In this document: positions 6,981-52,296 of the stretch, one piece after another
Layout: every line of letters starts with the position of its first letter
How positions within the stretch are numbered: position 1 is the stretch's first letter
Origin: an uncultured Gemmatimonadales bacterium
Lineage (GTDB): Bacteria; Gemmatimonadota; Gemmatimonadetes; Longimicrobiales; RSA9
Reading direction: 5' to 3'
Assembly (NCBI GenBank): GCA_963798085.1
Contig: CAWCRS010000004.1
Location: 32,001-96,000 of the forward strand
Length of the DNA: 64,000 nucleotides
Notes under the pieces: model-generated
Seen by the model: the letters and a program-made list of their open reading frames with translations, nothing else
Databases searched by the model: none
Told to the model about the DNA's origin: nothing
Position numbers and translations under genes: made by a program

Positions 6981-6992
6981 CCGGTCCGCCCG

Positions 6993-9502: not shown

Positions 9503-9509
9503 AAGCGCC

Positions 9510-11669: not shown

Positions 11670-11675
11670 CGCCTC

Positions 11676-16296: not shown

Positions 16297-16304
16297 GCGC
16301 CCCC

Positions 16305-17600
16305 TCAGTTCCGGCGGATGATGATTTCCAGGACAGTGCTCTTGCCAATGCCTTCAGTGCCCAGCACTTCGGGCGCGGCATCACGGCCGTTGGCGCCGGG
16401 CACCAGCGCCTGCAGGACCGCCAGCGACGCGGCCGGGCCCGCGGCGCTGGCCGCAGCACGTTGTCCCAGCTGGTCCGTAGTAGTGGCCTGCGCGCTCGCG
16501 GCGCGCGTGGCCACATCCGCGTTGCGGCGGGCCGCGGCGAAGCCACGATCCAGGCTGGCCGCGCGCTGGAACTGCTGCGCCGCTGCGCCGTAGTCTGCGC
16601 GGTCCTGCGCCTCCAGACCCCGACCGAACGCGAGCACGGCCTGCAGGTTCTGTGTGGGCCGCTGATTCACACGCTCCCGCTCCGCCACCGTCAGCTCGAT
16701 GCCCAGCGAGCCGTAGATGTCGAGCGCCAGCCGCTTCTCCAGATCGAACAGCCTGTTGAGCGCGTCCTGCTGCTGCACCGTGCGCGCTGCCGCGCCTGCA
16801 TTGGCCGCGTCCACTACCGCCGCCTGCAGCTGCAGCTGGGACTGATCGCCCGCGATGCGGCCCTGCACGATGCGCCCGGCGCCCAGCAGCCGACCGCTCC
16901 TCGCCGCTGTCGCCGGATCCACCAGACCGGTCCGGTCCAGCTTCAGCTCGTCCAGCAGGAATTGCACGCGCGAACGTTCCAGCACGGTGAGCCGCTGCGT
17001 CTGCGAGAGGTCCGTCACCAGCATCTCCGCGAGTGCGCGGCTGAGCGGTTCCAGCTCGGCATTCCCACCGTTGTAGAGGAACGGGAAAATGGCCACCGAC
17101 GCAGGCGCCAGCCGGCTCGTGCCCAGCTCCGCTTCGCGCGCCAGCGCATCGCGCACCGCCGCCTCCAGCTCCTTGCGCTCGATCAGCGGCATGCGTGCCT
17201 GGACCTCGTTCTTCAGGCCCTTCGACTTCTCGTCCTGCAAGTAGCGCGTGTACAGCTGCCTTGCCTGCGCGTACCGACCCAGGTCCTCGTACGTCAGCCC
17301 GAGGAAAAGGACGCCCTGCGAGTTCTGCATGCGCAGCGCGACCGCCCGCTCCAGCACCTGCCTGGCCTGGTCCGTGCGCTTCAGCCGGCGATACACCTGA
17401 CCCAGCTGCAGCAGAGCGTCGAAGTCCGTCGAGTCCTTCGCCACACTCGCCTCGAGCGCACGCACCGCGCCGGGTGATGGCGCCGCCGTCGTCTGCACCG
17501 CGGGCGCGCAACCCGCCAGCAGCGCCGGCAGTACCAGCGCGAGCGGCATGCCGCGGCCGGGCGAGAAGTTCCGGCGCAAGCGGGTTCCCAGCGGCTCCAT
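16305..17600 (-). CDS. TPR + CsgG/FlgO-like lipoprotein, ~431 aa
   Basis: AGGAGG RBS before ATG 17600; lipobox LLAG-C; TPRs (DALLQLGQVY.., LFLGLTYEDLGRY); 'VAIFPF...LAEMLVTDL...LTVLER...AARSGRLLGAGRIVQG' CsgG/FlgO/TolB-N-type signature. Confidence 0.8.
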   Translation of the reverse strand: MEPLGTRLRRNFSPGRGMPLALVLPALLAGCAPAVQTTAAPSPGAVRALEASVAKDSTDFDALLQLGQVYRRLKRTDQARQVLERAVALRMQNSQGVLFLGLTYEDLGRYAQARQLYTRYLQDEKSKGLKNEVQARMPLIERKELEAAVRDALAREAELGTSRLAPASVAIFPFLYNGGNAELEPLSRALAEMLVTDLSQTQRLTVLERSRVQFLLDELKLDRTGLVDPATAARSGRLLGAGRIVQGRIAGDQSQLQLQAAVVDAANAGAAARTVQQQDALNRLFDLEKRLALDIYGSLGIELTVAERERVNQRPTQNLQAVLAFGRGLEAQDRADYGAAAQQFQRAASLDRGFAAARRNADVATRAASAQATTTDQLGQRAAASAAGPAASLAVLQALVPGANGRDAAPEVLGTEGIGKSTVLEIIIRRN

Positions 17601-17680
17601 GGAACCTCCTTCGAAGCCAGGCGGAGGAGAAAAAGCCTCGTTTGCGCGAAGCCGAAGATCCATGAGGTAGCGACCGCTCC

Positions 17681-17930: not shown

Positions 17931-19268
17931 CTACCGAAGCGTGTCCAGGAGTCGCGCCGCTTGCGTGGCCGGCGATGTCATGAGGATCTGCCCGGTCGCC
18001 TCCCGCCTCCCACCATAGATGATCGCCAACACCTCGCCGTTCTCGTCGAAAAGCGGACTGCCGCTGGCGCCGGCCGCACCGTAGCCCTGCACTTCGATGT
18101 GGTCGCTGGCCACGTGGTTGACCACGCCCACCGAGCCGAGCGGCCGGGCCAGCCGCCCGGTACGCACGTCCTGCGGCCAGGTCTCGCCACCCAGCGGGAA
18201 CCCGATCCAGGCGACGGGCGCGCCCGCACGCACCGTGTCCGCGTGCAGATTCAGGCCGCGCACCACGGGCACATCACCTTCGATGTTGTCCACCTTGATA
18301 ACAGCGATGTCAGCAAAGTCGGCAATGGCCAGCACGTGCGCCGGGAAGACCTGATTGGAGCCGGCGAACTGTACGGCCATGCGCTTCGGCGGCTGCAGGT
18401 CGTCACTCTGCACGATGTGCCTGCAGGTGATCAGCGTGGCATCCGGGCGCACGGCGAATGCGGTGCCCGTCACCACCACGCCGCCGGCCGTTTCCACGTA
18501 GATCACGGCCACCGCCGGCCGCGAGACCCGCTCGATGGACGCGTAATCGATGGAAGCCGCGAGCTGCTGCCGTTCCAGCGCCGCGAGCGCAGACTGGAGT
18601 TGTCGCTTGAGATCCTTTTCCTGGGAACGGTCACCCTGCGACGTGGCGCGCTGCAGGCCGTCACGCGCGGCACGCACTTCGGCCTGCGTCCGCTGCAGCG
18701 CCTGCGCCAGTTCCTCGCGCTGTCCGGCCAGCGCGCGCACCGCCGTGTCACCCGTGGCCAGCACGCGGTCAATGCGCGCCAGCAGCTGCGAACGCTCGGC
18801 CTGCTGCCGCTGCTGCTGCACGCGCGACGCGTAGGCCATCGCCGCGAGCATCACCAGCAGCGCGCCAATGATGATTTTCAGGCGACGATTCTGGGCAACG
18901 ATCGGGTCCCGACCTGCGGGCGTTACGGCAGCTTCACCCGACACGGGAACCGCGATGTCTTCGGCGCCCGGGATGCGGAACTCGACCTCGGGGCCATCCC
19001 AGCCGAAGCGGATGCGGTCGCCGTGGCGCAGTGCCTTGAGCGCGACACGCTCGCCATTGACGAACGTGCCGTTGCGGCTGCCGGCATCGCGCACGAACCA
19101 GCGCAAGCCATCGTAGCCCACGGTGGCGTGCTGCGCCGAGACATCCGTGTCGCGTTGTGGATCGAAGCGCAGGTCGACGCCGGCCTGGCGCCCGATCGTG
19201 ATCTCGCGCGTGATGGGAAACACCTCACCCGTACGCGCGCCGCGCAGGATACGCAGTTCGGCAGTCAA
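17931..19268 (-). CDS. FHA domain - TM - coiled coil - trypsin-like serine protease, 445 aa
   Basis: FHA IGRQ..VSAQHA..AGSRNGTFV; TM IIIGALLVMLAAMAY; catalytic triad TCRH / ADIAV / GASGSP. Confidence 0.88.
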   Translation of the reverse strand: MTAELRILRGARTGEVFPITREITIGRQAGVDLRFDPQRDTDVSAQHATVGYDGLRWFVRDAGSRNGTFVNGERVALKALRHGDRIRFGWDGPEVEFRIPGAEDIAVPVSGEAAVTPAGRDPIVAQNRRLKIIIGALLVMLAAMAYASRVQQQRQQAERSQLLARIDRVLATGDTAVRALAGQREELAQALQRTQAEVRAARDGLQRATSQGDRSQEKDLKRQLQSALAALERQQLAASIDYASIERVSRPAVAVIYVETAGGVVVTGTAFAVRPDATLITCRHIVQSDDLQPPKRMAVQFAGSNQVFPAHVLAIADFADIAVIKVDNIEGDVPVVRGLNLHADTVRAGAPVAWIGFPLGGETWPQDVRTGRLARPLGSVGVVNHVASDHIEVQGYGAAGASGSPLFDENGEVLAIIYGGRREATGQILMTSPATQAARLLDTLR

Positions 19269-19276
19269 GGAGCGCG

Positions 19277-20200
19277 TCAGCTGCGGCTGGGGGCGTAGAC
19301 GCGCCGGCCGACCTCATCAGCTTCGCCTGGGTCGAACAGGCCGCCCCCATCGAAGCTGGCGACCACCACCGTGATGTTGTCGGGGCCGCCTCGCTGATTG
19401 GCCAGGTCGACGAGACCCTGGCAGAGCGCCGCGGGTTCCGGGTGAAGACCCGCCAGCTCGGCAATGTCCGGGCGTGAGATGACTTTCGACAGGCCATCGG
19501 AGCAGACGATCACCACGTCGCCGCGACGCAGCTCCTGGTAGGTCAGGTCCACATCCACGAACGGCGATGTGCCCAGCGCCTGCAGGATCATGTTGCGGTG
19601 GTCGCTCTTCTCCGCTTCCTCTTCGGTCATGGTGCCGGCATCGACCAGGTGCTGGATGTAGGACTGGTCGCGCGTGATCTGCCTGGCATTGCCGCGGCGC
19701 ACGAGGTAGGCGCGCGAATCGCCCACCTGCGCCACATAGAGGAACGCATCGAACACGCCTACCGCCGTGGCCGTGGTGCCCATGCCGCGGAAGCGCTCGT
19801 CCGCCAGGCTGGTCTCATGAATGCGCGTGTTGCTCGCCTCCACGGCTTCCTTGAGCCGGGAAGCGAACTGCTGCGGCGTATTGATGCGGTCGGTCAGCCA
19901 GAAGCGCTGCAGCTGATCGTGGATCGCCGTAACCGCAACGTTAGCGGCCACGCCGCCGGCCGCGGCGCCGCCCATGCCATCCGCCACCAGGCAGAGCGCG
20001 CCTTTCTCGCCCAGGTCGAACTCGCCGACCGCGGGTTCACCCGTGCCCAGGTCGGGCTCCAGCACGAGGCCGCCGTTCTCCACCGTCGTGAGATCGGAGA
20101 CCAGGAAGGAATCCTGGTTCTCGCGACGTCGCTGCCCGATGTCGGTCTTGCCCGCGACGCGCACCCGGATGCCCCGGTGATCGAAGTCGAAGCCGCTCAC
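19277..20200 (-). CDS. PP2C/PPM-family Ser/Thr protein phosphatase (Stp1/PppA-like), ~307 aa
   Basis: TDIG..RENQD, VADGMGG, VGDSRAY, CSDGL, GGPDNIT motifs; GTGA overlap with the kinase stop. Confidence 0.92.
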   Translation of the reverse strand: MSGFDFDHRGIRVRVAGKTDIGQRRRENQDSFLVSDLTTVENGGLVLEPDLGTGEPAVGEFDLGEKGALCLVADGMGGAAAGGVAANVAVTAIHDQLQRFWLTDRINTPQQFASRLKEAVEASNTRIHETSLADERFRGMGTTATAVGVFDAFLYVAQVGDSRAYLVRRGNARQITRDQSYIQHLVDAGTMTEEEAEKSDHRNMILQALGTSPFVDVDLTYQELRRGDVVIVCSDGLSKVISRPDIAELAGLHPEPAALCQGLVDLANQRGGPDNITVVVASFDGGGLFDPGEADEVGRRVYAPSRS

Positions 20201-21912
20201 CCGCGCAACGCCTTGCACAGGTCCTTCAACGTCAGATAACCCCGCGCGCCGGGTTTCAGCTGGAGTGCGCGGTCAACCCACAGGTCGCAATTGTCGGCAT
20301 CCCGCAGGTTCAGGTACGCGCTGGCCAGCATGTAGGCTGCTAATGCTTTGTTTGGGGCAGAGATTTCTGCGCCATCCCAGTATGCCAGGGCGGTGTCGAT
20401 GACCGCGTGGGCCCCGACTGATGACATTCTGTCCGTCGGCACATAGTCCAGCTGCCGGGGCAGAACTACCTTCGCATCCGCATCGGTCAGTACCGTGGCA
20501 CCCCCGCCGCCGCGATTCGGCGGCTGGCCGCCGCCCTGCGTCGCCTGACCGCTGTCACCGCGTGTGCCGGCGGCTGTCTGTCCGGTGTCGGTCTGCGTGG
20601 AAGCGCCGCCTCGGCGCTGCGGGTGGGCGCGCCCGCCGTCCCCGCCGGAGGCGGATTGCACGACCGTGGGCGAGTCGGCGTGCGCCACCGCATTGGGGTC
20701 GGGATTCTGCGTGCCGGCGCCGCCACGCGAGGGATTGGGGCTGAACAGCGAGAGCGCCGCCCAGGTGCCGCCCGCGATCACGACCACGGCGGCTGCTAAC
20801 ACCAGGGTCAGCGGGAAGCGCCGCTTTCCACCGCCTGCGCCGGTGCCCGCGGGAGGCGCGCCCTCGGGCGGCGGCGGACCCAGCCGGGTCTCGGGTGTCC
20901 ATTCGGCGGCGCCGCGCGGCGAGGGCGAATGGCGGGTAGCGCCGAGACGGCTGTTCGCAGCACCGCCCCCGCCTGCTGCGGTGGCCTGTGGCGCTGCCGG
21001 CGCGCCCGCCACCGCCTGCAGCAGCCGCGGATCCGCGAGATCGCGCGCCAGTGTCGCGGCATCGGGGTAGCGATCGTCGCGCTTGAGCGCGAGCGCGTGC
21101 GTGAGCACGGTCTGCAGCGGCGGCGGAAACGACTGGTCCGGCCTTACGTCCGCCAGTGTCAGCGGTGCGTGCGTGAGCCGCTCCACCATGATCGCCTGCG
21201 TCGATCCACCCTGGAACGGCAGCATGCCGGTGAGCATGCGGAACAGCACGATACCCAGCGAATAAATGTCACTGCGCCCGTCGAGGCGCTCGCCCATGAG
21301 CTGCTCGGGGCTCATGTATTCGGGTGTGCCCAGCACGTAACCCAGGCGGGTGACCTCGTCGCCACCCATGGCTTCCGGACCCTTGGCGATATCGAAGTCC
21401 ACGACCTTCGCGATGTCGCTGCCATCGCGACCCTGCTCGATCATGATGTTGGCGGGCTTCAGGTCGCGGTGCACGATGCCGGTGGCGTGTGCCGCCTCCA
21501 GCGCCAGCGCCACCTGGCGCGCGATGGCCACGGCTCTCGCCGGCGGCAGCGTGCCCTGCGCGCGCAGCAGGTCGCCGAGGGTTCCGCCCGTAATGAATTC
21601 GAGGGCGAGGAAGGGCGAGCCGTCGGCGGTCTCACCGTAGTCGTACAGCGTACAGACATTGGGATGGCGAATGGCGGAGAGATTGCGCGCGCCCCGATTG
21701 AAGCGCGCAATGGTCTCGGCGTCGAAGGCCAGCTGTCCGCGCAGCACCTTGATGGCATCGCGGCGGCCGATCTTCAGGTGCTCACCCAGGTAGACGGCGC
21801 CCATGGCGCCCTCACCCAGCTTCTGCACGATGCGGTAGCGCCCGGCCAGCGTGCTTCCGACCAGCGGATCTTCCGCCGGCGGAGCGCTGCCGGTGCCGCC
21901 GGACTCGCTCAT
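20197..21912 (-). CDS. Membrane-bound Hanks-type Ser/Thr protein kinase (PpkA-like position), 571 aa
   Basis: LGEGAMGAVY, AIK, HRDLKPAN, DFD (for DFG), GTPEYMSPEQ, SDIYSLG; TM helix; short extracytoplasmic TPR-like tail. Confidence 0.92.
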   Translation of the reverse strand: MSESGGTGSAPPAEDPLVGSTLAGRYRIVQKLGEGAMGAVYLGEHLKIGRRDAIKVLRGQLAFDAETIARFNRGARNLSAIRHPNVCTLYDYGETADGSPFLALEFITGGTLGDLLRAQGTLPPARAVAIARQVALALEAAHATGIVHRDLKPANIMIEQGRDGSDIAKVVDFDIAKGPEAMGGDEVTRLGYVLGTPEYMSPEQLMGERLDGRSDIYSLGIVLFRMLTGMLPFQGGSTQAIMVERLTHAPLTLADVRPDQSFPPPLQTVLTHALALKRDDRYPDAATLARDLADPRLLQAVAGAPAAPQATAAGGGGAANSRLGATRHSPSPRGAAEWTPETRLGPPPPEGAPPAGTGAGGGKRRFPLTLVLAAAVVVIAGGTWAALSLFSPNPSRGGAGTQNPDPNAVAHADSPTVVQSASGGDGGRAHPQRRGGASTQTDTGQTAAGTRGDSGQATQGGGQPPNRGGGGATVLTDADAKVVLPRQLDYVPTDRMSSVGAHAVIDTALAYWDGAEISAPNKALAAYMLASAYLNLRDADNCDLWVDRALQLKPGARGYLTLKDLCKALRG

Positions 21913-21987: not shown

Positions 21988-22485
21988 TCACCGGCAATTG
22001 GCCTGCTCCTTCCGCTCGTCCCATTTCACAGGCCCCTCGAACTTGCGCGCGCGTACGATCTCGACGGGATAGGCATCGGTGCGGAAGCGATGGCAGCCCT
22101 GCACCGTGCGCACCACGATGGTGAGCACATCCTCGCGCTTGCCGGCGGAGTTCAGTTCGGGCCGCACCAGCAGGCTGTCGACGTGAATCTGGTCGTCGGG
22201 CGTCATGCGACCGGCTCCCACAACGATCACCATTTCGCGGTTGAAATCGACGGTGGGCGCAGCGGGCGGTGACGCGAGCGGCGTCGTCGCCTGCTTCCAG
22301 TACTCGAGCATGCTGGCGCCATTGCGGATGACCACGCGCACCGAGTCGCGGATGCCGCCCCCGTTGTCGTAGAGCAGCGGCACGGGTGGCGGCATGGGTG
22401 TGGGCGGCGGCGGCTGTGCCGGCCGGTGGTGAGCGCACGCGCCCAGCAGCAGCGCGCCGAGCAGGATGCGGGCGGATTCGCGCAT
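21988..22485 (-). CDS. Small lipoprotein, PrcB-C-terminal-like domain, ~165 aa
   Basis: Lipobox LLGA-C; Pro-rich tether; 'PTVDFNREMVIVVGAG' motif recalled from PrcB_C-like proteins. Confidence 0.6.
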   Translation of the reverse strand: MRESARILLGALLLGACAHHRPAQPPPPTPMPPPVPLLYDNGGGIRDSVRVVIRNGASMLEYWKQATTPLASPPAAPTVDFNREMVIVVGAGRMTPDDQIHVDSLLVRPELNSAGKREDVLTIVVRTVQGCHRFRTDAYPVEIVRARKFEGPVKWDERKEQANCR

Positions 22486-22524
22486 TGTCGTTCTATCGGT
22501 CGAGGGGAGAAAAGGCACCGGGTT

Positions 22525-25500
22525 TCACTTCGCGATCCGCGTGACACAACGGCCGAGCCGGCCCAGGTAGTCCTTCTGGAAGATGGGCGTACCCTTGCCG
22601 AAGCTCAACTCGGCGGAGAGCGTCGTCGTCTGCCCGGGCACCCTCCAGGTCACCAGCCAGGCCGCGCCGCGGCGCTCGAAGGACGTGGCGCTGTAGAACA
22701 CGTGGAACACGGCCCACGGTCCGGGCGGTGCATCCACCACGATAACATTGGCGTTACCGATCTTCGCGCGGATCTGCGCGCCCGACGTGCCGCCGCCCCG
22801 CCACTCGTAGGTACGCGACGCGGCCTGCGTCGGCGTGAAACGGTCGGGACGGCCATCCAGGTTCACCGTGACTTCGGGAATCTGCGGCGAAGTCTGCGGC
22901 TTGAGCGCGAACACGACGAACGGACCATCGCCATTCTCGTCGAAGAAGGCGCTGGACACTTCCGCCGCGCGATTGAAGAAGTCGACGAATGCGATGTCCG
23001 CCTGGGGCGTTGCACCCGCCTTGGCCACGTAGCGCGAGCCCTGGCGCAGCAGCAGGTCCTGCAGCGCATCCTGGTAGAACTGCCACAGTGCGCCGTTGCC
23101 GGGCTGCAGCGCATTGGTCACTTCGTCGATGGTCGCTTCGGTGCGCGACGCCGAGCTGAACGGGAACTTGCCCGAGAGCTGCGTCAGCGGTGCGCAGAAC
23201 GATGGGCCCTTCTTGTTCACCTCATCGACAGGCAGCGCGCCGATCACGGACTCCGCGCTGGTCACGGGCGCGAGCAGCTGCTGCTGAATGGCGGCGCCCA
23301 CCAGCCGGGCATCGCCTTCCGTGCTGAAATTCCGGGCCATGCCCGAGATCTCGCCCTTCACCTGCTGCGCCGACGAGCTGGCCTGCAGCATGGCCTGGGT
23401 CTGCAGGGAGCCGTTGCTGGTCGCCACTTGGTCGAGCGCCGACTGCAGCCCGCCCAGTGCCGTCAGGTACTTGCCGGCCGGGTCGGATACGCTCGTGGCG
23501 TGTGGCGGCACTACGTCCTGCGCCGGCTTGAAGGCCTTGCCCACCAGCACCGTGTCAACAGCGGTGTTATCAGAGACAATGCCGATCATGCGCAGCAGCG
23601 GCGACTGATTCGAGCTGAGCATGCGCAGCTTGCCGGATGCGTCCTGCACACTGCCGAACGAGCCCACACGACCACCCTGCAGGAAGCGCAGCCACCAGCT
23701 CGTGTACTCGCTGGTGTAACGCCCGCGCAGGTTCTGCTCGAGACGGGCGCGCGCATCGGCCGGCACCGCACTCTCGCCCGCCACCCAGGTCTCGCGATCG
23801 AACAGCTTCTGTATGTTGTTCAGGCTGGCCTGCACCACGTCCCAGCCGTGGCGAGTGAAGGCGCCGGGCACTACCACGTCATTACGCAGCGTCCCATCCG
23901 CCCACTGCACGGATGCCGCCGAATCCGCCGCCGCACCGAGCAGCACGCGATAGAACTGGTCGTCGCCGGCAAAGCCGCGCAGGAATCCACGCACCTGCTC
24001 GACCAGCGCGGTGTCGGCAACGTCGCGGAAGGGATTGCTGAAGGGCAGCTCGTCCGCGTAGAAGCCGAACTGCGCCTGCGCCAGGCGGGCGCGCGCGGAA
24101 TCGGTGGCGCCACCCGCCGTCCAGAACCTCATCAGCGCGGGCGCCAGAAAATCGCGCTTCGATTCGTCCGGCTTGCTGCTCGTGACGATGTACGCTTTCA
24201 GCGCGTCGTAGGTCTGCGGGTACTCGCTGGTCTCGCTGTTCTCGCCGGGCGAGGCGGGCCGCGCGCGCAGCCAGCCCAGCAGCGCGGAACGCGTGCGCTC
24301 CCAGAGCAGCTGCCGGAATCTCGTGAAGTACAGGAGCCGCATCTCTGGCTGCAGCCGGTCGCCCGCGTAGAGTCCCCAGCCCATGCTCGCCGGGTGCCCG
24401 CCGCGAACATAGGTGTTCAGGCGCGCGGCCTCGGCGCGCAGCGAATCGAGGCGCTGCAGCGTTTCCAGATCCGGCAGCGGGCCCACCGAGGCAAGTCCGC
24501 GCGCGCCCGTCACCGCGTTGCGCGCATCGCTCAGCAGGCCGCGATTGCGGAAGAACGAAACCGTGAAGCCAATGGAGAAGACGAGCGCGGCCACGCCGGC
24601 GGCGGCGATGACGGCGCGGCGCAGCAGATTCACCTTGGTGCCGCCCGCGGTCACCCTGCGTGCGACGTCGTCCTTCTGGATGACGTCGCGGAACACGCGC
24701 TCGAGGAAGGACCACTCCGGCACCTTGCGCGAGCCCGCGGGCGCCTGTGCGTGCGCCTGCATCTGCGCCATCTGCGCCTGCAGCTGGCGGGGGTCGAACA
24801 CGCCCGTCGCATCCATGGGCGTCTGCGAGACCGGGCCGCCGGCCGCCGCACGCGGCGCTTCCGCACCCGCGTCGTGCAGGAATACGGCCCGCACACCGGT
24901 GAAGTAGAAACCCCGCAGGAACGGACTGACACCGAGTTGGCTGGGGCGGCACAGATCGAGGAGGAACTGCGTCGCCAGATCCGTGATCTTGCGGAACTCG
25001 CGCGGGAACTCGTATGCGCCCGCCCTCAGATCATCGCGTGTCTCGCGCGGCAGCACATCCAGGCGGCGCAGCGCGAGGCCGCGGAACAGCACGTGGAACG
25101 CCTCCGACAGACGACGCGATTCGCGCTCTGCGTACGCGCCCACACCACCGGCCTGAGGCACGGTGAGCGTGACACCCAGCACATCACGCGTTTCTTCGCG
25201 CGTGAGGCTGCGCATGAAGTCCTCGAAGTACGGCAGCCGGTCCGACTTGGTGAACAGCACGTAGACGGGCAGGCGGATCCCGATCTGCTGCGAGACTTCC
25301 GCCAGCCGGGTGCGCAGCCGCTGCGCGGCCGCGGGCACCGCTTCCGATGCGCCCGGCTTGAGCAGCTCATCACAGCCGAAACACACGACGGCCACACGCG
25401 GCGCCTGCCGCCCGCGCGAGAACACTGCGCCCAGCCGGCTGGGCTGCACGTGCCGGATCAGCCGGCGCCAGCGGCCGGCTTCGTTCAGCACCTTCGCGCC

Positions 25501-25968
25501 CGCCTCGAGCACGAGCGTGCCCTGCGCGAACCACACGTTCACCGACGACGTCGGTACGATCGCGTCGCCACGATACACCTCGCCCGCGAGCAGCTCGGGC
25601 TCCATTCCCGAGTGCGCGACGATCGTGGTCTTGGCGCTGCTCGCCGGGCCCGTCATCAGAATGACCGGCAGCCGGCCGAACTTCGCCGCGGCCTTGCCCT
25701 TCGCCGCCGCGAGCCGGTTCCTTGCCGCCGAGAACGTGACGTCGATTTCGTCGCGGCCCTCCGCTTCCACCGGCTCGGCCTTCGCCTTCCCGGACTGCCA
25801 CAGGAACACGAGGATGGCGGCAATCAGACCGAGCAGCCACACGCCCCCCACCAGCAGCCATCGGCTCGAGCCGGTCAGACCCAGAAGCGCGGCCGCAGCC
25901 CAGCCCACCAGCAGGAAGAGCAGAAACGTGCTGCTCGTGAAGGTCCAGATCTTTGGCGCTCGCTTCAT
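22525..25968 (-). CDS. tssM: T6SS membrane complex subunit TssM (IcmF), 1147 aa
   Basis: Two N-terminal TMs; degenerate Walker A GPASSAKTT; 'LPVYVLFTKSDRL', 'FLRGFYFTG'; third TM; periplasmic domain with 'VPGAFT..GW' and C-terminal 'GPWAVF'. Confidence 0.92.
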   Translation of the reverse strand: MKRAPKIWTFTSSTFLLFLLVGWAAAALLGLTGSSRWLLVGGVWLLGLIAAILVFLWQSGKAKAEPVEAEGRDEIDVTFSAARNRLAAAKGKAAAKFGRLPVILMTGPASSAKTTIVAHSGMEPELLAGEVYRGDAIVPTSSVNVWFAQGTLVLEAGAKVLNEAGRWRRLIRHVQPSRLGAVFSRGRQAPRVAVVCFGCDELLKPGASEAVPAAAQRLRTRLAEVSQQIGIRLPVYVLFTKSDRLPYFEDFMRSLTREETRDVLGVTLTVPQAGGVGAYAERESRRLSEAFHVLFRGLALRRLDVLPRETRDDLRAGAYEFPREFRKITDLATQFLLDLCRPSQLGVSPFLRGFYFTGVRAVFLHDAGAEAPRAAAGGPVSQTPMDATGVFDPRQLQAQMAQMQAHAQAPAGSRKVPEWSFLERVFRDVIQKDDVARRVTAGGTKVNLLRRAVIAAAGVAALVFSIGFTVSFFRNRGLLSDARNAVTGARGLASVGPLPDLETLQRLDSLRAEAARLNTYVRGGHPASMGWGLYAGDRLQPEMRLLYFTRFRQLLWERTRSALLGWLRARPASPGENSETSEYPQTYDALKAYIVTSSKPDESKRDFLAPALMRFWTAGGATDSARARLAQAQFGFYADELPFSNPFRDVADTALVEQVRGFLRGFAGDDQFYRVLLGAAADSAASVQWADGTLRNDVVVPGAFTRHGWDVVQASLNNIQKLFDRETWVAGESAVPADARARLEQNLRGRYTSEYTSWWLRFLQGGRVGSFGSVQDASGKLRMLSSNQSPLLRMIGIVSDNTAVDTVLVGKAFKPAQDVVPPHATSVSDPAGKYLTALGGLQSALDQVATSNGSLQTQAMLQASSSAQQVKGEISGMARNFSTEGDARLVGAAIQQQLLAPVTSAESVIGALPVDEVNKKGPSFCAPLTQLSGKFPFSSASRTEATIDEVTNALQPGNGALWQFYQDALQDLLLRQGSRYVAKAGATPQADIAFVDFFNRAAEVSSAFFDENGDGPFVVFALKPQTSPQIPEVTVNLDGRPDRFTPTQAASRTYEWRGGGTSGAQIRAKIGNANVIVVDAPPGPWAVFHVFYSATSFERRGAAWLVTWRVPGQTTTLSAELSFGKGTPIFQKDYLGRLGRCVTRIAK

Positions 25969-25979
25969 CGGGATCGATC

Positions 25980-26711
25980 CTAACTGCCGCTTACGAGCTG
26001 GGCGGCGGCATCACGAACGTGATTCGCGCCCGAGATCAGTGTGAGCTTGTACAGTACGAAGAGCAGCAGCGCGAAGGCGATGACACCACCCGCCATGAGC
26101 GCCAGCCGGCGCAGCCACGGATCCGACGCCGCCGCCACCAGCTCGCCCTGCGGCAGCACCCACGCCGCGGGCATGGCGGCACGCGTGCCGCGAATGCGCT
26201 GGATCTTCTGCTGGATCGACATCACCAGGCCCTGCAGCGTGCCCGGATCACTCGCCGTGTACTTGCCCCGGAAGCCCAGCAGCAGACACAGCACGTAGAC
26301 CTCGAGCAGGTCCGCCAGCTCCGGCGCATCCTGCCTGGCCATCAGCTCGCCCACGTAGCGGAAGAAATTCTCGCCCGCCATGTGCTCGCCGAAGATCTCC
26401 TCCTGCAGCGGCTGGCGGGTCCAGTCCGCGAACATGCCCTGGGACGAGTGCAGCACCGTCTCGTCCAGGAACGCGATGTACGCGTAGATGGCCAGCTTCA
26501 CATGCTCGGCGTCGTAGCCGCGCGCGCGCGCATCGCGGTCCGCGCTTGCCAGCAGCGCCTTCACGTGCGCGCGGAATGACTGCGCATCGGTCGCTGCCTG
26601 GCGGTTCGCGCGCAGCCGCACCGCCACCGTGAACGCCTCCTGCAGCGCCAGGGCCAGCTCGCCCGCGCGCGCCGCGGCTTCGGCCCCGGGCCGAACCGTC
26701 TGGGAACTCAT
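25980..26711 (-). CDS. tssL: T6SS TssL (DotU), 243 aa, no OmpA domain
   Basis: 'AFLDETVL...W..QPLQ..FGEHMAGENFF...LEVYVLCLLLGFRGKY'; C-terminal TM; ATGA overlap with the tssK stop. Confidence 0.92.
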   Translation of the reverse strand: MSSQTVRPGAEAAARAGELALALQEAFTVAVRLRANRQAATDAQSFRAHVKALLASADRDARARGYDAEHVKLAIYAYIAFLDETVLHSSQGMFADWTRQPLQEEIFGEHMAGENFFRYVGELMARQDAPELADLLEVYVLCLLLGFRGKYTASDPGTLQGLVMSIQQKIQRIRGTRAAMPAAWVLPQGELVAAASDPWLRRLALMAGGVIAFALLLFVLYKLTLISGANHVRDAAAQLVSGS

Positions 26712-28067
26712 GATCCGAGCACGATGGTCAGCTCCAGCTCTGCATTGGGAATCGCGGCCGGCAGGTACATGCCCACGTTGCCCGTCTTCGCCATGAGCGC
26801 CCAGCACGGACCGGCCGTCTGTACGTGGAAATAGTGCGAGCCCATGCGCGGCGAGATGGCAGCCGGGGGCGAGGCTTCGTAATCGAGTGTCAGGCCGGGC
26901 AGGCCCTCGCGCACCAGCCGCGTGATGTGTTCCGCGGAGCATACCTTGGTCAGGCGAGGCACGCCGGTGGCCACTTCTGCGCGCGAACCCGTCGAGCGCA
27001 CCCCCAGATACCAGTGTGTGCCGGGCGCGAAACAGCGCTGGTCCGGCACCGGCGCGCGATAGAAGAACTGCTGCTCGGTCGCCACCATGGGAACCACCAC
27101 CGCGTTGGTCGGAATGATGATCTCGAGAATGCCGCCGGATATGGCTCTCCAGCGCGTCGAAGCACGTCGCCAGATCGTCGTGATCGTAGGACGGCAGGTC
27201 ACGCGGGTGGGCATCGAACGAAAACGTGCACAGTGCGCCCGCCAGGCGGGACATCTCAATGAACAGGCGCTCGGGGTGCACCGCACGCGTCTGCAGCAGG
27301 TGCCGCAGCGGCGAGTTTGCCGCATTGACGGCGTGCGTCAGCCAGAAATTCGCCACTTCGCGCGCCGCCCATTCCGCCAGCGGCTGCTGCGTCGCGCGAC
27401 GCTCGCGCAGCATCGCGTCCGACTTCGCGTCCAAAATCTCGACAAGGCGGGCTGTCATGCGGAGCAGGCGCTCGCTCGCACCCAGCTGCAGGCAGGGCGG
27501 CACGTAGTCCGGATCATAAATGAAATGGCCCCGCCCGTCTCGGCGTACCCGCGCGATGGGCAGCGTCACCAGATCTTCGTGCTCCTGATGCTCGAGCAGC
27601 AGGCGGAAGTTCTTGCGACCCAGTACGACCTGCTTCTCGTCGCTGCCCGTGATCTCGTCCGAGAGGGACTGCGGCGTGGCGACGTAGCGCACCCCGGAGC
27701 GGTCGACTTCGCCGTCCAGCGCACAGTTGGCGTGACCCGCGCGCTCCGGCGGAATCGCCAGCAGCACGGCATGACGGTCGTGCACCGGTGAGAACAGGGG
27801 TCCGACGTCGAGCGGGTCGGGCGGCGTGTCTTCGGGAAAATGGAAGGCCAGACCATCGGGCATCAGCCCGCGCGCGTGTGTCAGCGAAACGGTCCCGTTC
27901 AGCAGCGCGTCGACGTCCAGCTCGCACCCGACCAGTCCATACGTGCGGAAGAAGAGGCTGCCCAGCGCGAACGAGGTCAGCTCTTCGAAATACCGGTTTT
28001 GCGCCTGGAAGTGGTGCTGGGCCAGGTGCATGCCCTCGCGCCACACCACGGGTGACAAGAACTTCAT
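26708..28067 (-). CDS. tssK: T6SS baseplate TssK (copy 2), ~452 aa; +1 frameshift at ~27129 in this sequence
   Basis: 'VVWREGMHLAQHHFQAQ', 'VANFWL', 'HPERLF', 'YDHDDL..CF'. Deleting one T in CATTCTCGAG restores HIRRHLEIIIP and a length matching the other TssK. Confidence 0.88.
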
Positions 28068-28139
28068 GCTCTCCTCCGAGCCCAGCGCGCGCATGCACAA
28101 TGCACGGCCACGCTCGATTGCCGGCTACGGTAACGGCGG

Positions 28140-28151
28140 GTAGTATACTAC
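28140..28151. promoter_or_regulatory. Perfect 12-bp palindrome GTAGTATACTAC in divergent intergenic region (bidirectional -10 or operator)
   Basis: Self-complementary AT-rich island with TATACT on both strands, between tssK2 (start 28067) and the Pro-rich gene (start 28237). Confidence 0.5.
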
Positions 28152-28236
28152 GTTGCCGGCGCGTTGGCCGGAACCATCGACGCATCCGCTCCGATCGACG
28201 CATTTGATCACAACGCTCGCGCCGCCCGAGTACTGA

Positions 28237-30339
28237 ATGACCAGCGCCGGTTTCCACGAACGATATCAGGTTCTGCAGCAGGTGAGCGACGGACCCGTCC
28301 GCTCGTTTCACGCCATGGCCGCTACCGGCGCCGTCGTCATGGTGCACTTCGTCGCTGCAGGCGACGACACGCGGCATCGCATTCTCGGGCTGATCGACCG
28401 GCTCCGACCCGCCGAGCGAAAGCGCGTCGTCGAGACCGCAGACGTGGACCAGAGCTTCGTCATCGTCACCCGTTTCATTCTCGACTTCACCTCGCTCGAG
28501 GCCTGGCTGCTCGCGCATCAGGCGGACGCCTCGAGTACCGGTCCCTTCGCGGTCGCGCGTGAGCATACCGGGGGTCAGGCGACGACGCCGCCGCAGCGCC
28601 CGGTCCCGCCGCCGGCAATGTCGCTCCAGCCGCCGGGTCCGCCCATCGCGCGTCCACCGGCCGGCGCCACTTTCGCTCCACCGCCGCGGCCACTCACTCC
28701 GCCGCCCCTGCCGCCGGTCGCGCCGCTGCAGCCGGTGGCCAGCCGGCCGCCCGTGCCGCCGCCCGCGCCGCCCATGCCGCCACCGCCACCCCCGGCGCCC
28801 CCGGCGCCCCCGGCGCCGCCGGCCGGTAAGCCGCCGGGCGAATTCACCATGATGTTCGCGAACCCAAACCCGGCCGGGGCGCCGGCTTCCCCACCGCCAC
28901 CGGCCGCGGTTCCGCCCTCACCGCCGCCCTTCACGCCACCGCCGCCACCACCGCCAGCGCCTCCCGTGGCGAGCAAGCCGCCCGGCGATTTTACCATGAT
29001 GTTCGCGAAGCCCGAGGCTCCGGCGGGCCAGCCAGCCCCGGCAGGAATGATGCCCGCCCCGCTGCCACCGCCGCCGGCCCAGCCGCCACCGGCGCCGCCC
29101 GTGCAACCGCCGCCACCGCCACCACCTCCAGCGAAACAGCCCGGCGATTTCACGCTGATGTTCATGAAAGCGCCCGGCGAACTGACGGCAAACGCACCCG
29201 CCGTGCAGCCGCCGGCCGTGACGCCGCCAGCGCCTCCAGCGCCGCCCGCTCCGACTCAAGCGCCACCCGCGCTTCCGGCATCACCGCCGCCACCACCGGC
29301 GTTCGCGGCGCCGCAGCCACCGATCTTCGCGGCACCCGTACGGCCACCGCCGCCGCTGGCGCAGCCGCCGGCAGCCCCGCCGCCCATGCCGCCGCAGGCG
29401 CCACCTGTCTGGTCGCCGGCGACCCGGCCAATCTCGCCGCAGCCACCAATGGCGCAGCCGCCCGCACCGCCATCGGCGCCGGGTGACTTCACGCGCATTT
29501 TCCGCCACGAGAGCGGTCCGCCTCCCCCGGCCTCGCCCGGGATGCCCCCCGCAGGGGCTACGGGCAGCTTCGCGATTCCCGGTCCATTCGCGCCCCAGGC
29601 GGCGCCGCCGCCCGCGCCGCCGAGGCCGGCCTCGCCACCCCCTCCGCCAGCGCAACCCGCGGCGCCCGGCGAATTCACCCAGCTTTTCGCGGGGCCGGCG
29701 CAGCCGTCAGCAGCGCCGCCGCCACCACCGGCACCGCCCGGGCGCATGCCGGGAGCGACATCGCCGGGCAGCATCGGCCCGAGCGACAACTACCTCGACC
29801 GGCTCAGCTCACCGAGTTCGTTCAGTGCCGGCCCGACGCCGTCTTCCGCGGCCACGCCGCCTGCGCCGGGCGCCGCCAATCCGAAGGAACCGGGCGAGTT
29901 CACGAAGATGGTGCGGGGCGCCGGTGCTCAGCCCAGACCGCCGTCGACACGGCCGCCGACACCGGCGCTGACGCGGCCGCCTTTTGCGACGCCTCACATG
30001 CCCGGCATGACTCCGCCACCGCCTCCTCCCACGCCGCAGGGGCCGAGCGAATTCACGCGCATCGTGTCCGCCGCACACATGGCGCCGCCACCCGCGCCTG
30101 CGCCGCCGCCACCGCCACCACCTCCAAGGGTCGTGGCGGCGCCACCGCCCAACCCGAACCAGAAGCTGCTGATCATCGGGCTGATCGTGATTGCGGTTCT
30201 GGCGCTGGTGCTGATCCTGGTGTTCGCATTGCGCCCGCAGGCGTCGCCCGCGACCTCGCCGGGCAATGTGCCGGCGGCGGGCGCGCCGGCCGCTCCGGCG
30301 GGCAGCTCCTCGCCGGGGGCTGCGGGATCCGGCTCCTGA
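28237..30339 (+). CDS. Pro-rich membrane-anchored protein with N-terminal kinase-N-lobe-like domain and seven P(G/S)(E/D)FTxx(F/V) motifs, 700 aa
   Basis: Long ORF with GC-rich third codon positions; N-terminus 'ERYQVLQQVSDGPVRSFHA..VMVHFV'; repeats at 28834, 28981, 29140, 29479, 29665, 29890, 30043; TM LLIIGLIVIAVLALVLILVFAL. Confidence 0.8.
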   Translation: MTSAGFHERYQVLQQVSDGPVRSFHAMAATGAVVMVHFVAAGDDTRHRILGLIDRLRPAERKRVVETADVDQSFVIVTRFILDFTSLEAWLLAHQADASSTGPFAVAREHTGGQATTPPQRPVPPPAMSLQPPGPPIARPPAGATFAPPPRPLTPPPLPPVAPLQPVASRPPVPPPAPPMPPPPPPAPPAPPAPPAGKPPGEFTMMFANPNPAGAPASPPPPAAVPPSPPPFTPPPPPPPAPPVASKPPGDFTMMFAKPEAPAGQPAPAGMMPAPLPPPPAQPPPAPPVQPPPPPPPPAKQPGDFTLMFMKAPGELTANAPAVQPPAVTPPAPPAPPAPTQAPPALPASPPPPPAFAAPQPPIFAAPVRPPPPLAQPPAAPPPMPPQAPPVWSPATRPISPQPPMAQPPAPPSAPGDFTRIFRHESGPPPPASPGMPPAGATGSFAIPGPFAPQAAPPPAPPRPASPPPPPAQPAAPGEFTQLFAGPAQPSAAPPPPPAPPGRMPGATSPGSIGPSDNYLDRLSSPSSFSAGPTPSSAATPPAPGAANPKEPGEFTKMVRGAGAQPRPPSTRPPTPALTRPPFATPHMPGMTPPPPPPTPQGPSEFTRIVSAAHMAPPPAPAPPPPPPPPRVVAAPPPNPNQKLLIIGLIVIAVLALVLILVFALRPQASPATSPGNVPAAGAPAAPAGSSSPGAAGSGS

Positions 30340-30348
30340 ACGCTGCGC

Positions 30349-31704
30349 TCAGCGGGCGGGGGGCAGGAGGATGACCAGCTCGAGCCGTGGATTGGGCAGG
30401 TCGGACGGCACGTAGACCGCCAGATTTCTCGCCACCTTGATCGAGTCCCAGTCGCTGCCCGTCAGGTCCAGCGCGAAGTACTGATAGTCGAGGCGCACGG
30501 GCAGGGCGCTGGGTGGATTGGCTACGTAGCTGAGCGACAGGCCGGGCAGAGCCCGCTTGATCAGCCGGTCCAGCTGGTCCGCCGAGCTGACTTTCAGCAA
30601 CTGCGGCGCCTTGCGCGACAGTTCTTCCGGCTTCACATCCGCGGCCACGGCCAGGTACATCTGTGTCGACTTCAGGTAGCGCTCCTGATCGATGGCCGCG
30701 GCGTAGACGGCGGGTTCCGTCAGGCGCAGCGGCAGCGACGCATGGTTCGACGGCACCACGGTCTCGAGCAGCTCCCGCACCATGTCATCCAGCTGCGCGA
30801 AGCAGGTGGAGAGGTTGCTGTGGTCGTACTCCGGCAGCATGCGCGGGTGCACGGTGGTGGAGAAGGTGGTCAGCGCGCCCGCCAGCCCGAGCATTGCGCC
30901 GTACAGCTCGACGGGGTGACCGTGCCGGGTCTCGAAGAGATGGCGGAACTCCGGTAGCCACGTGTTCATCGTATAGAGCAGCCAGAAATTGGCGACATCG
31001 GACACGCCGAAGTCGGCCAGGCCGAGATTGCGCTGCCGGCGTGAGCCCGAGAGGCTGGTGCTGCGCGCCGAGAGCTGCTCGACGAGGCGGCGGGCATAGC
31101 CCATGAGGTGGTCGCTCGCGGCAATGTCGATCAGCGGCGGCACGAACACGGGGTCGAGCTGGAACACGCCCGCCACCGAACGTGTGATGCGCGCCAGCGG
31201 GATCGTGGAATTGCCTTCCAGCGTTTCGCCCTCGATCACGAGCCGGAGATTCTTGCGCGCCACCTGGATCGGCTTCTCGCCCTTGCCGGTGTTCTCGTCC
31301 CGGCGGTTCACGACTTCCGCTATGAAGCGCGTCTGCCGGTCCACCGCGTTGGTGGAGACGTTGTAGCCGCCGAAGCGCAGCTCGGGCACACCCAGCCACA
31401 CGTGCAGCGCATCGCGATCCGGATGCCAATGCTCCTCGATGGGCCGGGGCGCGGGCGACGGCTCCGAGCGCGGTACATCGAAAGGCAACCCATCGGGGAA
31501 GATCCCGGCCGCGTCCGTCACCGCCAGCTCGCCGCCCGCGAGCGCCTCGCGGTCGATCTCCAGGCGGGCGAAGCCCCACGGACAGAACGTCAGCGAGCCC
31601 AACTGGAAATGGAGCAGCGTCTCCAGAAACCGGTCCTGCGTCTGCAGGTGCTGCGGCGTGAGCAGCACGCCCTTGGTCCAGAGGACCTTCTGCATCTGGG
31701 TCAT
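30349..31704 (-). CDS. tssK: T6SS baseplate TssK (copy 1), 451 aa
   Basis: 'KVLWTKGVLLTPQHLQTQD', 'PWGF', 'DVANFWLL', 'HPVELY', 'ALPGL', 'YQYFAL'. Confidence 0.92.
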   Translation of the reverse strand: MTQMQKVLWTKGVLLTPQHLQTQDRFLETLLHFQLGSLTFCPWGFARLEIDREALAGGELAVTDAAGIFPDGLPFDVPRSEPSPAPRPIEEHWHPDRDALHVWLGVPELRFGGYNVSTNAVDRQTRFIAEVVNRRDENTGKGEKPIQVARKNLRLVIEGETLEGNSTIPLARITRSVAGVFQLDPVFVPPLIDIAASDHLMGYARRLVEQLSARSTSLSGSRRQRNLGLADFGVSDVANFWLLYTMNTWLPEFRHLFETRHGHPVELYGAMLGLAGALTTFSTTVHPRMLPEYDHSNLSTCFAQLDDMVRELLETVVPSNHASLPLRLTEPAVYAAAIDQERYLKSTQMYLAVAADVKPEELSRKAPQLLKVSSADQLDRLIKRALPGLSLSYVANPPSALPVRLDYQYFALDLTGSDWDSIKVARNLAVYVPSDLPNPRLELVILLPPAR

Positions 31705-31711
31705 TGCACGG

Positions 31712-32212
31712 ACTCGACTGCGCTGCTCGGGCTGGGGATCACGAACAACGAACGAACTGCGTTGCTGGCGCGGGTTGCCGGGGCTGGTTGCCGGGGAACG
31801 GCGACGGGTTCAACTGCGTTGCCGGGGCTGGTTGCCGGGGCTCTTTGCTCGGAAACCAATGCAGCCGCGCGAGCCCGTGCGCAGCGCGAGCCTTCGACAC
31901 GGAGCACGTCCGCCTCTTCCGCCCCGCTCGTGAGTCGCGGATTCCGCCACATCATTCTGCCGCCTTCCATGCCGCTACCGTTCATCGCCGGTCATTCACT
32001 TCCGCCGGTGGTTTCGATCTTCGGATGGTAACACCACATCGCGCCACTCGATTCGCTCATCGGTTCCCGAGCAACCAAGCCCGAGCAGCGCTGTTGATCC
32101 GTGATTCCGTTCCCGGGCAGCCAGCCCCAGCCACCAGCACGAGCAACGCCATTGATCCGTTGAATCCGTAAGCCCCAGCCCAAGCCCCAGCCCGAGCAAC
32201 GCAGCTGCAGTT
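31712..32212. repeat. Imperfect long inverted repeat (~145-bp arms, each built of about 3 degenerate GCGTTGCTCGGGCTGG units) around a ~200-bp core; MITE/BIME-like
   Basis: Left arm 31712-31857 (ctgcgctgctcgggctgggg...gctggttgccggggaacgg...tcggaaacc) aligns with the reverse complement of 32062-32212 (ctgcgttgctcgggctgggg...gctggctgcccgggaacgg...tcgggaacc). Confidence 0.7.
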
Positions 32213-32254
32213 CCAGACATGATCCCACGCGCTTCCGCGCACAGCAAGGGCCGC

Positions 32255-32284
32255 TTGACTTTCCCATCGTGCGGCGCGTAAGCT
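32255..32284 (+). promoter_or_regulatory. Candidate sigma70 promoter of the tssB operon
   Basis: TTGACT, 18 nt spacer, TAAGCT, about 110 nt upstream of the tssB ATG. Confidence 0.5.
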
Positions 32285-32395
32285 GCTGGTTCGGTGGCTG
32301 ACCCGGTGCCGCGCATCGGGCGCCGATGCAAATCGACCTCCTGCGCCAGCCCCGCACCTCCGAATCAACCACGACCGATCGACTGGAGCGTCCAC

Positions 32396-32920
32396 ATGCC
32401 GGAGAGTATCCACCGCAAACTGGAGCGCGTCCGTCCGCCGCGCGTACACATCAGTTACGAGGTCGAAACAGGCGGCGCCATCGAGATGAAAGAGCTGCCG
32501 TTCGTGATGGGTGTGCTCGGCGATTTCACCGGCCAGCCCACGGAGCCGCTCGCGAAATTGAAGGATCGCAAATTCGTCGAGGTCACGCCCGACAATTTCG
32601 ACGACGTGCTGAAGAGCATGAAGCCGCACCTCTCCTTCAAGGTCGACAATCTGCTTTCCGACGACCCCAACGCCGGCAAGATCGGCGCTGATCTGAAATT
32701 CGAGAGCCTCGACGACTTCTCGCCCGACCGCGTCGCACAGCAGGTCGAGCCGCTGCGCAAGCTGCTCGATCTGCGCCAGCAGCTGGCGGACCTGCGCGGC
32801 AGCCTGCAGGGAAATGACAAGCTCGAGGAAATCCTGCAAACCACGATCGGGGATGAGGAAAAGATGAATCGGCTGAAGGGCGAACTGGGAGCCGAAGGAG
32901 CGAGCGATGGCCAATCCTGA
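32396..32920 (+). CDS. tssB: T6SS sheath small subunit TssB (VipA), 174 aa
   Basis: 'RVRPPRVHISYEVETGGA..ELPFVMGVLGDF...DDFSPD..V..LRKLL'. Confidence 0.96.
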   Translation: MPESIHRKLERVRPPRVHISYEVETGGAIEMKELPFVMGVLGDFTGQPTEPLAKLKDRKFVEVTPDNFDDVLKSMKPHLSFKVDNLLSDDPNAGKIGADLKFESLDDFSPDRVAQQVEPLRKLLDLRQQLADLRGSLQGNDKLEEILQTTIGDEEKMNRLKGELGAEGASDGQS

Positions 32921-51960: not shown

Positions 51961-52296
51961 ATGATCGAGAGCGCGCGTGACGTGATGGTGGCGATCGCCC
52001 TGGATCTTCGGCTCGGGCAGCTGCGCGAGCGGCAGATGGAACTGCTGGAGGCGGGCGAGCGCCTGCCCGTCGACTTCTGGGTGGCCGGACAGCGCGCCAT
52101 CCGGGATGCGTTGCTCGCGCGCTTCTATCACGAGGAGCTGCGCGTGGCGCTGTCAGGCGAGGGCGAGCGGGGCCGCAGTGATGAGGAGGCGTTCGACGCA
52201 CGCGAGTCCAGACTTGCCGAGTACGCGATCCTGCTCACCCACCGGCGTCTGGTCGACATGCCCTGCGTGGGCGATCCCGCCGTGCGCGACGACTGA
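51961..52296 (+). CDS. Hypothetical protein, 111 aa
   Basis: Coding-like codon usage; stop overlaps the next ATG (TGATG). Confidence 0.6.
   Translation: MIESARDVMVAIALDLRLGQLRERQMELLEAGERLPVDFWVAGQRAIRDALLARFYHEELRVALSGEGERGRSDEEAFDARESRLAEYAILLTHRRLVDMPCVGDPAVRDD

Follow-up and report, generated by a model that had tools for sequence, protein, structure and literature searches.

Between the two tssK genes of a type VI secretion system (T6SS) in an uncultured Gemmatimonadales bacterium lies a gene for a Pro-rich protein with seven copies of a short peptide motif. What does this protein contribute to the secretion system, and what would its motifs bind? The gene occupies positions 28237-30339 (+) of the stretch of DNA analyzed here (64,000 nucleotides, hereafter the window), encodes 700 amino acids (224 Pro, i.e. 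32%), is antisense to both flanking tssK genes, and diverges from the operon of tssK-a, tssL, and tssM. The motif protein is very probably a genuine T6SS accessory factor, and its gene, unannotated and widespread, marks a T6SS subtype with two TssK proteins. For its mode of action we favor, with somewhat less than even confidence and judging from sequence and predicted structure, a membrane tether whose helical motifs would dock a conserved T6SS core part, most likely the TssK pair, with the Thr of the motif as a possible phospho-switch.

All seven motifs of the form P(G/S)(E/D)FTxx(F/V) that an earlier note on this DNA had named were located on the Pro-rich tether, each on the forward strand: PGEFTMMF (28834-28857), PGDFTMMF (28981-29004), PGDFTLMF (29140-29163), PGDFTRIF (29479-29502), PGEFTQLF (29665-29688), PGEFTKMV (29890-29913), and PSEFTRIV (30043-30066), the last being a variant and the one nearest the membrane. 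They start at residues 200, 249, 302, 415, 477, 552, and 603, i.e. with spacings of 49, 53, 113, 62, 75, and 51 amino acids. When residues 100-640 were shuffled 20,000 times, 19,994 shuffles held no motif, six held one, and none held two. A six-frame scan of the 6.2-Mb genome returned the motif gene as the only cluster of this motif. Synonymous codons vary between the seven copies at P, G, E/D, F, and T, as had been claimed. Because the codons differ, tandem duplication of DNA is not needed as a source of the repeats here, although some relatives do have long duplicated blocks. The reading frame is coding, with 23, 20, and 44 differences at codon positions 1, 2, and 3 over 100 codons of the N-terminal domain compared with a same-genus orthologue. 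An artefact of the antisense or poly-Pro frame was rejected on these differences and on the 370 matches (E ≤ 1e-3) found in a search of 1.84 billion representative sequences. A scan of 27900-32400 for sigma-70 promoters gave no site.

The C-terminal anchor proposed earlier corresponds to a single predicted transmembrane helix at about residues 644-663 (30166-30225, +; Kyte-Doolittle 3.6), with the N-terminus predicted inside and a tail of 37 amino acids after the helix. A hydrophobic C-terminal helix was found in 106 of the 150 family proteins examined, these 106 carrying 0-8 strict motifs. Among 114 full-length members, Lys and Arg together numbered 232 before the helix and 87 after it, a charge bias which suggests that the motifs face the cytoplasm. 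Across the family, the motif occurs in 1-16 copies per protein at a median spacing of 46 amino acids, and the last copy stands a median of 44 amino acids ahead of the anchor. A second, single-copy motif (DNYLDRL, residues 517-523; 29785-29805, +) is conserved in part of the family: a word of the (Y/F)xxRL type was present in 50 of the 114 full-length members, including members of the window's own order, and was not present in families f4 and f5.

Motif conservation was assessed in 246 distinct sequences with a pattern anchored only on G-x-(F/Y)-x-x-(L/M/I/V)-F, which yielded 770 motifs. The Thr described earlier as invariant, with a hydrophobic residue at +3, was borne out, since the central residue was Thr in 762 motifs and Ser in four, and the +3 residue was mostly Phe. 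The linker background is richer in Ser than in Thr (5856 and 3373 residues, respectively). The core F-T-x-(L/M/I)-F was constant, whereas position -2 was more variable (E in 642, D in 44, A in 30, S in 28, and G in 11 of the 770). Phe at -1, Thr, the hydrophobic residue at +2, and Phe at +3 are kept and correspond to an i, i+3, i+4 face. AlphaFold2 predicted a 10-residue helix from the Glu to position +7 at a predicted local distance difference test (pLDDT) score of about 90, a value to be read with caution as it refers to an isolated peptide.

The family was found in Gemmatimonadota and Acidobacteriota. Pfam and NCBIfam returned no family for the whole protein or for its N-terminal domain, searches of Rfam and of PDB sequences gave nothing for the motif gene, and there was no match to named families of T6SS-associated genes (TagH, TagL, TagP, TagN, TsmK, TagY/Z, and others) among those with Pfam or NCBIfam models. 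Word-index protein searches, which are insensitive, gave one and nine matches. Atlas showed unnamed clusters from both of these phyla and, ranked below them, clusters of kinase fragments, all of which we treat as leads only. Scanning the DNA of species genomes for the motif gave at least 126 loci (about 700 stretches estimated), mostly labeled Acidobacteriota or Gemmatimonadota. Of 74 scanned contigs with flanks, 64 carried an open reading frame (ORF) with multiple motifs, two more lay inside T6SS clusters, and eight were apparent chance matches; a few of these contigs repeat genomes of the other samples, and hence the sets are not independent. No published description of the family was found in searches of the open-licence literature (without supplements), which probed two-tssK systems poorly.

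The distribution of the gene follows that of the tssK pair closely. Among 301 genomes of the phylum, 31 had the motif gene and 30 had two full tssK genes, all 30 being within the 31; only one of the 271 genomes without two tssK genes had it, and the three with one long tssK match did not. In 26 of the 30 the gene stands directly between both tssK genes, and in two it abuts one of them at a contig end. In the remaining two it abuts tssK-a with tssK-b 30 kb away, or lies on another contig. Among 61 closer relatives, 12 of the 13 carriers had two tssK genes. In a sample of 251 genomes of the acidobacterial phylum, two had two tssK genes and both had the motif gene, one of them (G584) in a G-S-F-T variant missed by the DNA pattern. 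That pattern, which in this sample gave mostly single chance matches (27 of 251 genomes; nine control matches), detected a motif cluster in none of the 24 genomes with a single long tssK match. T6SS genes were present within 8 kb of 57 of the 64 multi-motif ORFs. The genomes of the other seven contigs all had a tssK match elsewhere, in one case just a fragment at a contig end. Encoded in T6SS clusters and co-distributed with them, the gene conforms to what is called a T6SS accessory gene, and the earlier idea of a membrane-tethered, multivalent scaffold tied to this secretion system is upheld.

How could such a protein act? The predicted inner-membrane anchor would hold the long Pro-rich tether in the cytoplasm, where each repeated motif probably forms a short helix; several such helices at once would attach to a conserved core component of the machine. 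Many helical sites on one membrane tether would suit the capture of a multivalent target. The motif is fixed at five or six positions across two phyla while its candidate FHA readers and kinase writers turn over, and an equally conserved pocket is therefore needed. The conserved cytoplasmic proteins of the cluster are those of the T6SS core. The TssK pair, which connects baseplate and membrane complex, is the most plausible candidate, given that the motif gene is a marker of two-tssK systems and that each baseplate wedge has two mobile TssK trimers whose heads bind TssL and TssM (PMC6300606). The partner could instead be TssL or TssM, whose genes the motif gene continues to accompany where clusters are rearranged. 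The role of the protein may be to capture or hold the baseplate near TssL/TssM. The invariant Thr would be either a packing residue or a phospho-switch, and the half-kinase head of the protein together with kinase, PP2C, and FHA neighbors keeps such a switch plausible. More speculatively, this head could recruit or tune the Ser/Thr kinase of the cluster, and phosphorylation of the Thr could switch docking on or off or hand the motif to an FHA protein.

Several points weigh against this reading or against its choice of partner. Kin share traits, so that the counts above show a stable module and not independent events. The cluster genes are co-inherited, and the tie to two tssK genes does not single out TssK; TssL, TssM, TssA, TagJ, and ClpV fit equally. 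Where clusters are rearranged, it is not tssK that the gene follows: it keeps its place next to tssL in G016 and in five Acidobacteriaceae/Terriglobales loci, and in G281 it goes with a kinase and CsgG-like genes. In one genome (G051, 96% complete), which gave no tssK or tssC match, the gene is a degenerate copy with two motifs and has a kinase, a PP2C, and an FHA-cyclase in its neighborhood. AlphaFold2 is inclined to draw isolated peptides as helices. Finally, an FHA ligand would be expected to favor Thr as it is favored here, with 762 Thr to four Ser in spite of Ser-rich surroundings.

The two TssK proteins themselves are distinct. TssK-a (26708-28067, -) is a divergent paralogue with about 37% identity to the intact TssK-b (30349-31704, -), and the two have separate signature residues. 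In a quick tree they fell on opposite sides of a branch in both phyla (SH-aLRT 100 and 99). They could form mixed trimers, or one type could occupy each TssG loop. The signature residues of the paralogues are complementary, e.g. Glu vs Lys near the N-terminus. In this assembly tssK-a is frameshifted near 27128. A 403-base contig of sequencing run X1, with six other differences, lacks the extra base there, and the orthologues checked are intact; the frameshift is therefore probably an assembly error or a strain-level change.

Phosphorylation of Thr is a known pathway of T6SS, with PpkA/TagE, PppA/TagG, and Fha/TagH as its components (PMC13584744) and phospho-Thr14 of TssL as the site in Agrobacterium (PMC3953482). 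The earlier note had proposed that the motifs are phospho-Thr ligands of FHA domains. On this view, the cluster kinase would phosphorylate the tether, which would gather FHA proteins at the assembly site (an FHA-transmembrane-trypsin protein here, an FHA-transmembrane-transglycosylase or FHA-DUF4123 protein elsewhere) in a multivalent, stand-alone form of the Agrobacterium phospho-TssL/Fha step. In its pure form we regard this as a strong rival of the docking reading, if the less probable of the two. It would account directly for a Thr that is hardly ever replaced by Ser and is followed by a preferred +3 residue, given that FHA domains read the methyl group of Thr and some prefer Phe or Tyr at +3 (PMC4037201); the +3 rule and the ETTS site of GarA are described elsewhere (PMC5549992, PMC5448819). 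However, selectivity is weak at +3 and otherwise loose (PMC4037201), and FHA reading gives no reason for the constancy of Pro at -4, Gly at -3, and Phe at -1. The PpkA-dependent Thr14 of TssL, which binds Fha, offers a precedent (PMC3953482).

The components of such a pathway are present in the window, as had been noted: a Hanks-type kinase, a PP2C, and five FHA domains, which are all the FHA matches of the genome. Two of these domains are each short of a canonical residue, the Ser in the second FHA of 4468-5469 and the Asn in the first FHA of 2198-4645. Writer, eraser, and reader could be, respectively, the PpkA-like membrane kinase, the PP2C, and the FHA-transmembrane-trypsin protein (17931-21912, -). 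Genes of all three kinds share the cluster in this window and in most of its order, and a kinase match was found in 21 of 26 annotated stretches, although kinases are abundant anyway (23 in this genome, 45-60 in three others). The activation loop of the local kinase, E-V-T-R-L, resembles the motif, but T-R is common in activation loops. A motif-like word, G-E-H-T-M-F-I, occurs in the FHA-SLT linker of three Acidobacteriaceae clusters.

Of the expected linkage of the motif to T6SS and FHA loci, the part that concerns T6SS genes held; an FHA gene was present within about 35 kb of the motif gene in just 14 of 41 genomes. Five near-complete genomes (G177, G294, G235, G206, and G318) had every FHA match on a different contig or at a distance of about 1 Mb or more. 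Counted over whole genomes, FHA matches were enriched, occurring in 38 of 38 high-quality genomes from the carrier set vs 18 of 40 non-carriers of the same order, although much of this enrichment stems from an FHA gene inside the cluster itself. The FHA neighbors differ by lineage (FHA-transmembrane-trypsin, FHA-transmembrane-SLT (lytic transglycosylase), FHA-DUF4123, or none) and are not orthologous across lineages, and the cluster kinases are of different types in different lineages. Thr was present in all 32 strict motifs from loci with no FHA gene seen near the cluster (two of these loci being on short contigs) and in 54 of 57 where an FHA gene was nearby. Weighing FHA ligand against TssK binding on such comparative data, the Thr-only pattern and FHA co-occurrence would favor the former, and the helical face, the two-tssK tie, and partner turnover the latter, which the earlier note had named as its alternative. 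In acidobacterial clusters, an FHA-transmembrane-lytic transglycosylase directly follows the tssK pair, and FHA-DUF4123 fusions also occur (L217:7116-8636; L096:10444-11436; L232:1363-2325, the last judged by likeness).

The N-terminal domain (residues 1-95; 28237-28521, +) was identified as a kinase N-lobe from an AlphaFold2 model, structural matches in Foldseek and VIA, and an invariant His, in agreement with the earlier description of an N-lobe without catalytic motifs. It folds at pLDDT 90 into strands beta1-5, helix alphaC, a hinge, and helix alphaD, with no C-lobe; conservation stops after alphaD near residue 95, where Pro/Ala sequence begins. All matches listed by the structure searches were protein kinases, the best with Z 9.5 and a root-mean-square deviation of 3.7 over 95 residues (PknB: Z 8.1). 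In an alignment with the local kinase, His37 occupies the position of the catalytic Lys, and there is no Gly-rich loop. This His was invariant in 48 of 48 alignment rows and occurred in 53 of 54 domains from the motif scan. The domain is thus a pseudokinase in the sense of a kinase fold without catalytic residues, but not a two-lobed kinase domain. A comparison of profiles gave little signal for the local kinase (E 0.007, probability 5%), and the fold search alone was clear. Homology to EssB or MviN found no support, with no match in Pfam and none among PDB sequences when the profile was searched at E ≤ 10. A conserved kinase N-lobe without a C-lobe is unusual.

This fold raises the prospect that the protein regulates the cluster kinase, the lone N-lobe pairing back to back with it and the motifs serving as docking or decoy substrate sites that set a firing threshold. 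We consider this improbable. Pseudokinases of the MviN type do dimerize back to back through their N-lobes (PMC12599244), and the kinase of the window (PpkA-like; 20197-21912, -) is atypical: it reads DFD where DFG is canonical and has Gly at the position of the alphaC Glu, while Lys and HRDLKPxN are kept. From its sequence it possibly has low activity or special regulation, and the same residues make its activity uncertain where it would have to phosphorylate an FHA ligand. DFD is common to nine of ten orthologues in related clusters; G033 has canonical residues. Against a regulatory role, the type of cluster kinase changes between lineages, and several acidobacterial members (L110, L113, L129, L155, L149, G584, and P0151) have no detectable N-lobe while motifs and anchor are kept, so that the motifs work without it. 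The motif tether is accordingly the core of the protein.

Another candidate partner is a linked S-adenosylmethionine-dependent methyltransferase (DUF7059-MTS-DUF7782/PqqD-like), for which the motifs would be recognition or modification sites in a multi-site tuning of the secretion system. A homologue lay in the fetched flank of 19 of the 64 multi-motif contigs, often as the next gene and including the T6SS-free L140, and the gene was present in 22 of the 301 genomes, 19 of them among the 31 carriers. One homologue has a PqqD-like C-terminal fold, which is a peptide-binding fold. Yet it was not found in 12 of the 31 carriers and was found in three non-carriers, the sole acidic or amide motif position (-2) varies, and the copy in this genome is about 45 kb distant from the motif gene, next to a long TssB/TssC-like fusion that is itself a possible target. 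We therefore hold this explanation to be highly improbable. Loci of the methyltransferase include L221:10259-11761 (in the same genome, beyond the window) and L100:8770-10254; no paper on DUF7059 or DUF7782 was found in the open-licence literature.

Farther left, at 2198-15080 (-), lies a module of multiheme cytochrome, cNMP (cyclic nucleotide)-FeS, double-FHA, and FHA-reductase-ferredoxin genes. According to the earlier note, the scaffold might tie the FHA reductase, the double-FHA adaptor, and the cytochromes to the secretion machine and so form the physical link between redox module and T6SS. The location of all FHA matches of the genome inside this window would be in line with it. However, none of the other 40 genomes searched, one of the same genus among them, gave a full-length match to the FHA reductase (one match was partial and reductase-only), and the cytochromes, cNMP-FeS protein, and double-FHA adaptor were not seen in the flanks of related clusters, of which only four reach the equivalent distance. 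The redox link is contradicted by these absences as a function of the family and is extremely improbable overall, although a local, recent use in this strain is conceivable. Since it was not seen next to the T6SS of relatives, the redox module is likely an independent unit.

Compared with known systems, the motif protein combines features of the PpkA/PppA/Fha pathway and of the YukC/EssB hub and is a member of neither, having no family match and no C-lobe. With the former the locus has in common that its cluster encodes a membrane Hanks kinase, a PP2C, and an FHA protein, and that a Thr site is carried by a cytoplasmic segment anchored in the membrane close to the membrane complex. There, a single site lies on TssL or Fha; here, 1-16 copies lie on a separate protein and phosphorylation is putative. 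Unlike TagH, the FHA proteins of these clusters are membrane-anchored hydrolases or DUF4123 fusions, with 72.8 and 35.1 bits vs a TagH cut-off of 120.25. EssB/YukC of type VIIb systems likewise has an N-terminal dead kinase fold, one membrane helix, and a hub role in secretion, and YukC binds an FHA region without phosphorylation (PMC9600267, PMC12599244). It differs in having a whole pseudokinase domain and an extracellular part. The motif protein has only the N-lobe and a 550-amino-acid Pro-rich linker with repeats, matches no family, and belongs to a type VI system. In mycobacteria, MviN is reportedly connected with FhaA through phospho-Thr. The MviN/MurJ pseudokinase resembles the motif protein in its membrane-bound dead kinase domain, its tie to kinase/FHA signaling, and its N-lobe dimer contacts (PMC12599244), but has both lobes, a flippase fusion, a cell-wall role, and no repeated motifs. 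TagL, TsmK, and TagV, too, are accessory factors, with supporting roles for the membrane complex or in docking of the baseplate, and TsmK binds TssK, TssL, and TssM and occurs where TssJ is missing (PMC13584744); they share no domain with the motif protein. Table 1 of a 2026 survey of T6SS accessory factors lists none with a kinase N-lobe, Pro-rich tether, or repeated motifs (PMC13584744).

This family bears on two questions of the T6SS field, namely by what means the six-fold baseplate meets and keeps hold of the five-fold membrane complex, and in what way assembly is triggered by Thr phosphorylation. Its motif is short and sharply defined, occurs up to 16 times on a flexible tether at the membrane, and goes with a conserved duplication of TssK; both phyla concerned are abundant in soil, and their secretion systems have barely been studied. 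Should the motif bind TssK, a new baseplate contact would be defined; should it be an FHA ligand, the protein would be a multivalent amplifier of a known phosphorylation pathway. A bolder proposal, which we think doubtful, is that Gemmatimonadota and Acidobacteriota have an undescribed T6SS subtype with two fixed TssK paralogues, in which a phospho-switchable, polyvalent half-kinase tether would catch the baseplate and couple docking to kinase signaling. If true, it would amount to a new assembly principle for the type VI machine, with a stand-alone kinase N-lobe used as a module.

The window contains a full T6SS cluster plus the kinase, PP2C, FHA-transmembrane-trypsin protein, and CsgG-like genes. 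The genes tssL (short, no OmpA domain) and tssM occupy 22525-26711 (-). Directly after tssM, an ORF at 21988-22518 (-) encodes a lipoprotein-like protein of 176 amino acids without family match that is conserved in many related clusters. There is no TssJ match in the window, and this ORF may be a TssJ stand-in. A TPR-CsgG-like lipoprotein and an unannotated neighbor (15160-17663, -) recur near related clusters. Tandem DUF2169 genes were found at 52296-54580 and 57852-60085, along with three vgrG genes, a PAAR-like ORF, and an RHS gene that runs past the end of the window. Finally, an extra ORF fusing TssB-like and TssC-like parts recurs in related clusters, apart from the normal tssB and tssC (L221:11758-15447; L130:379-1854).

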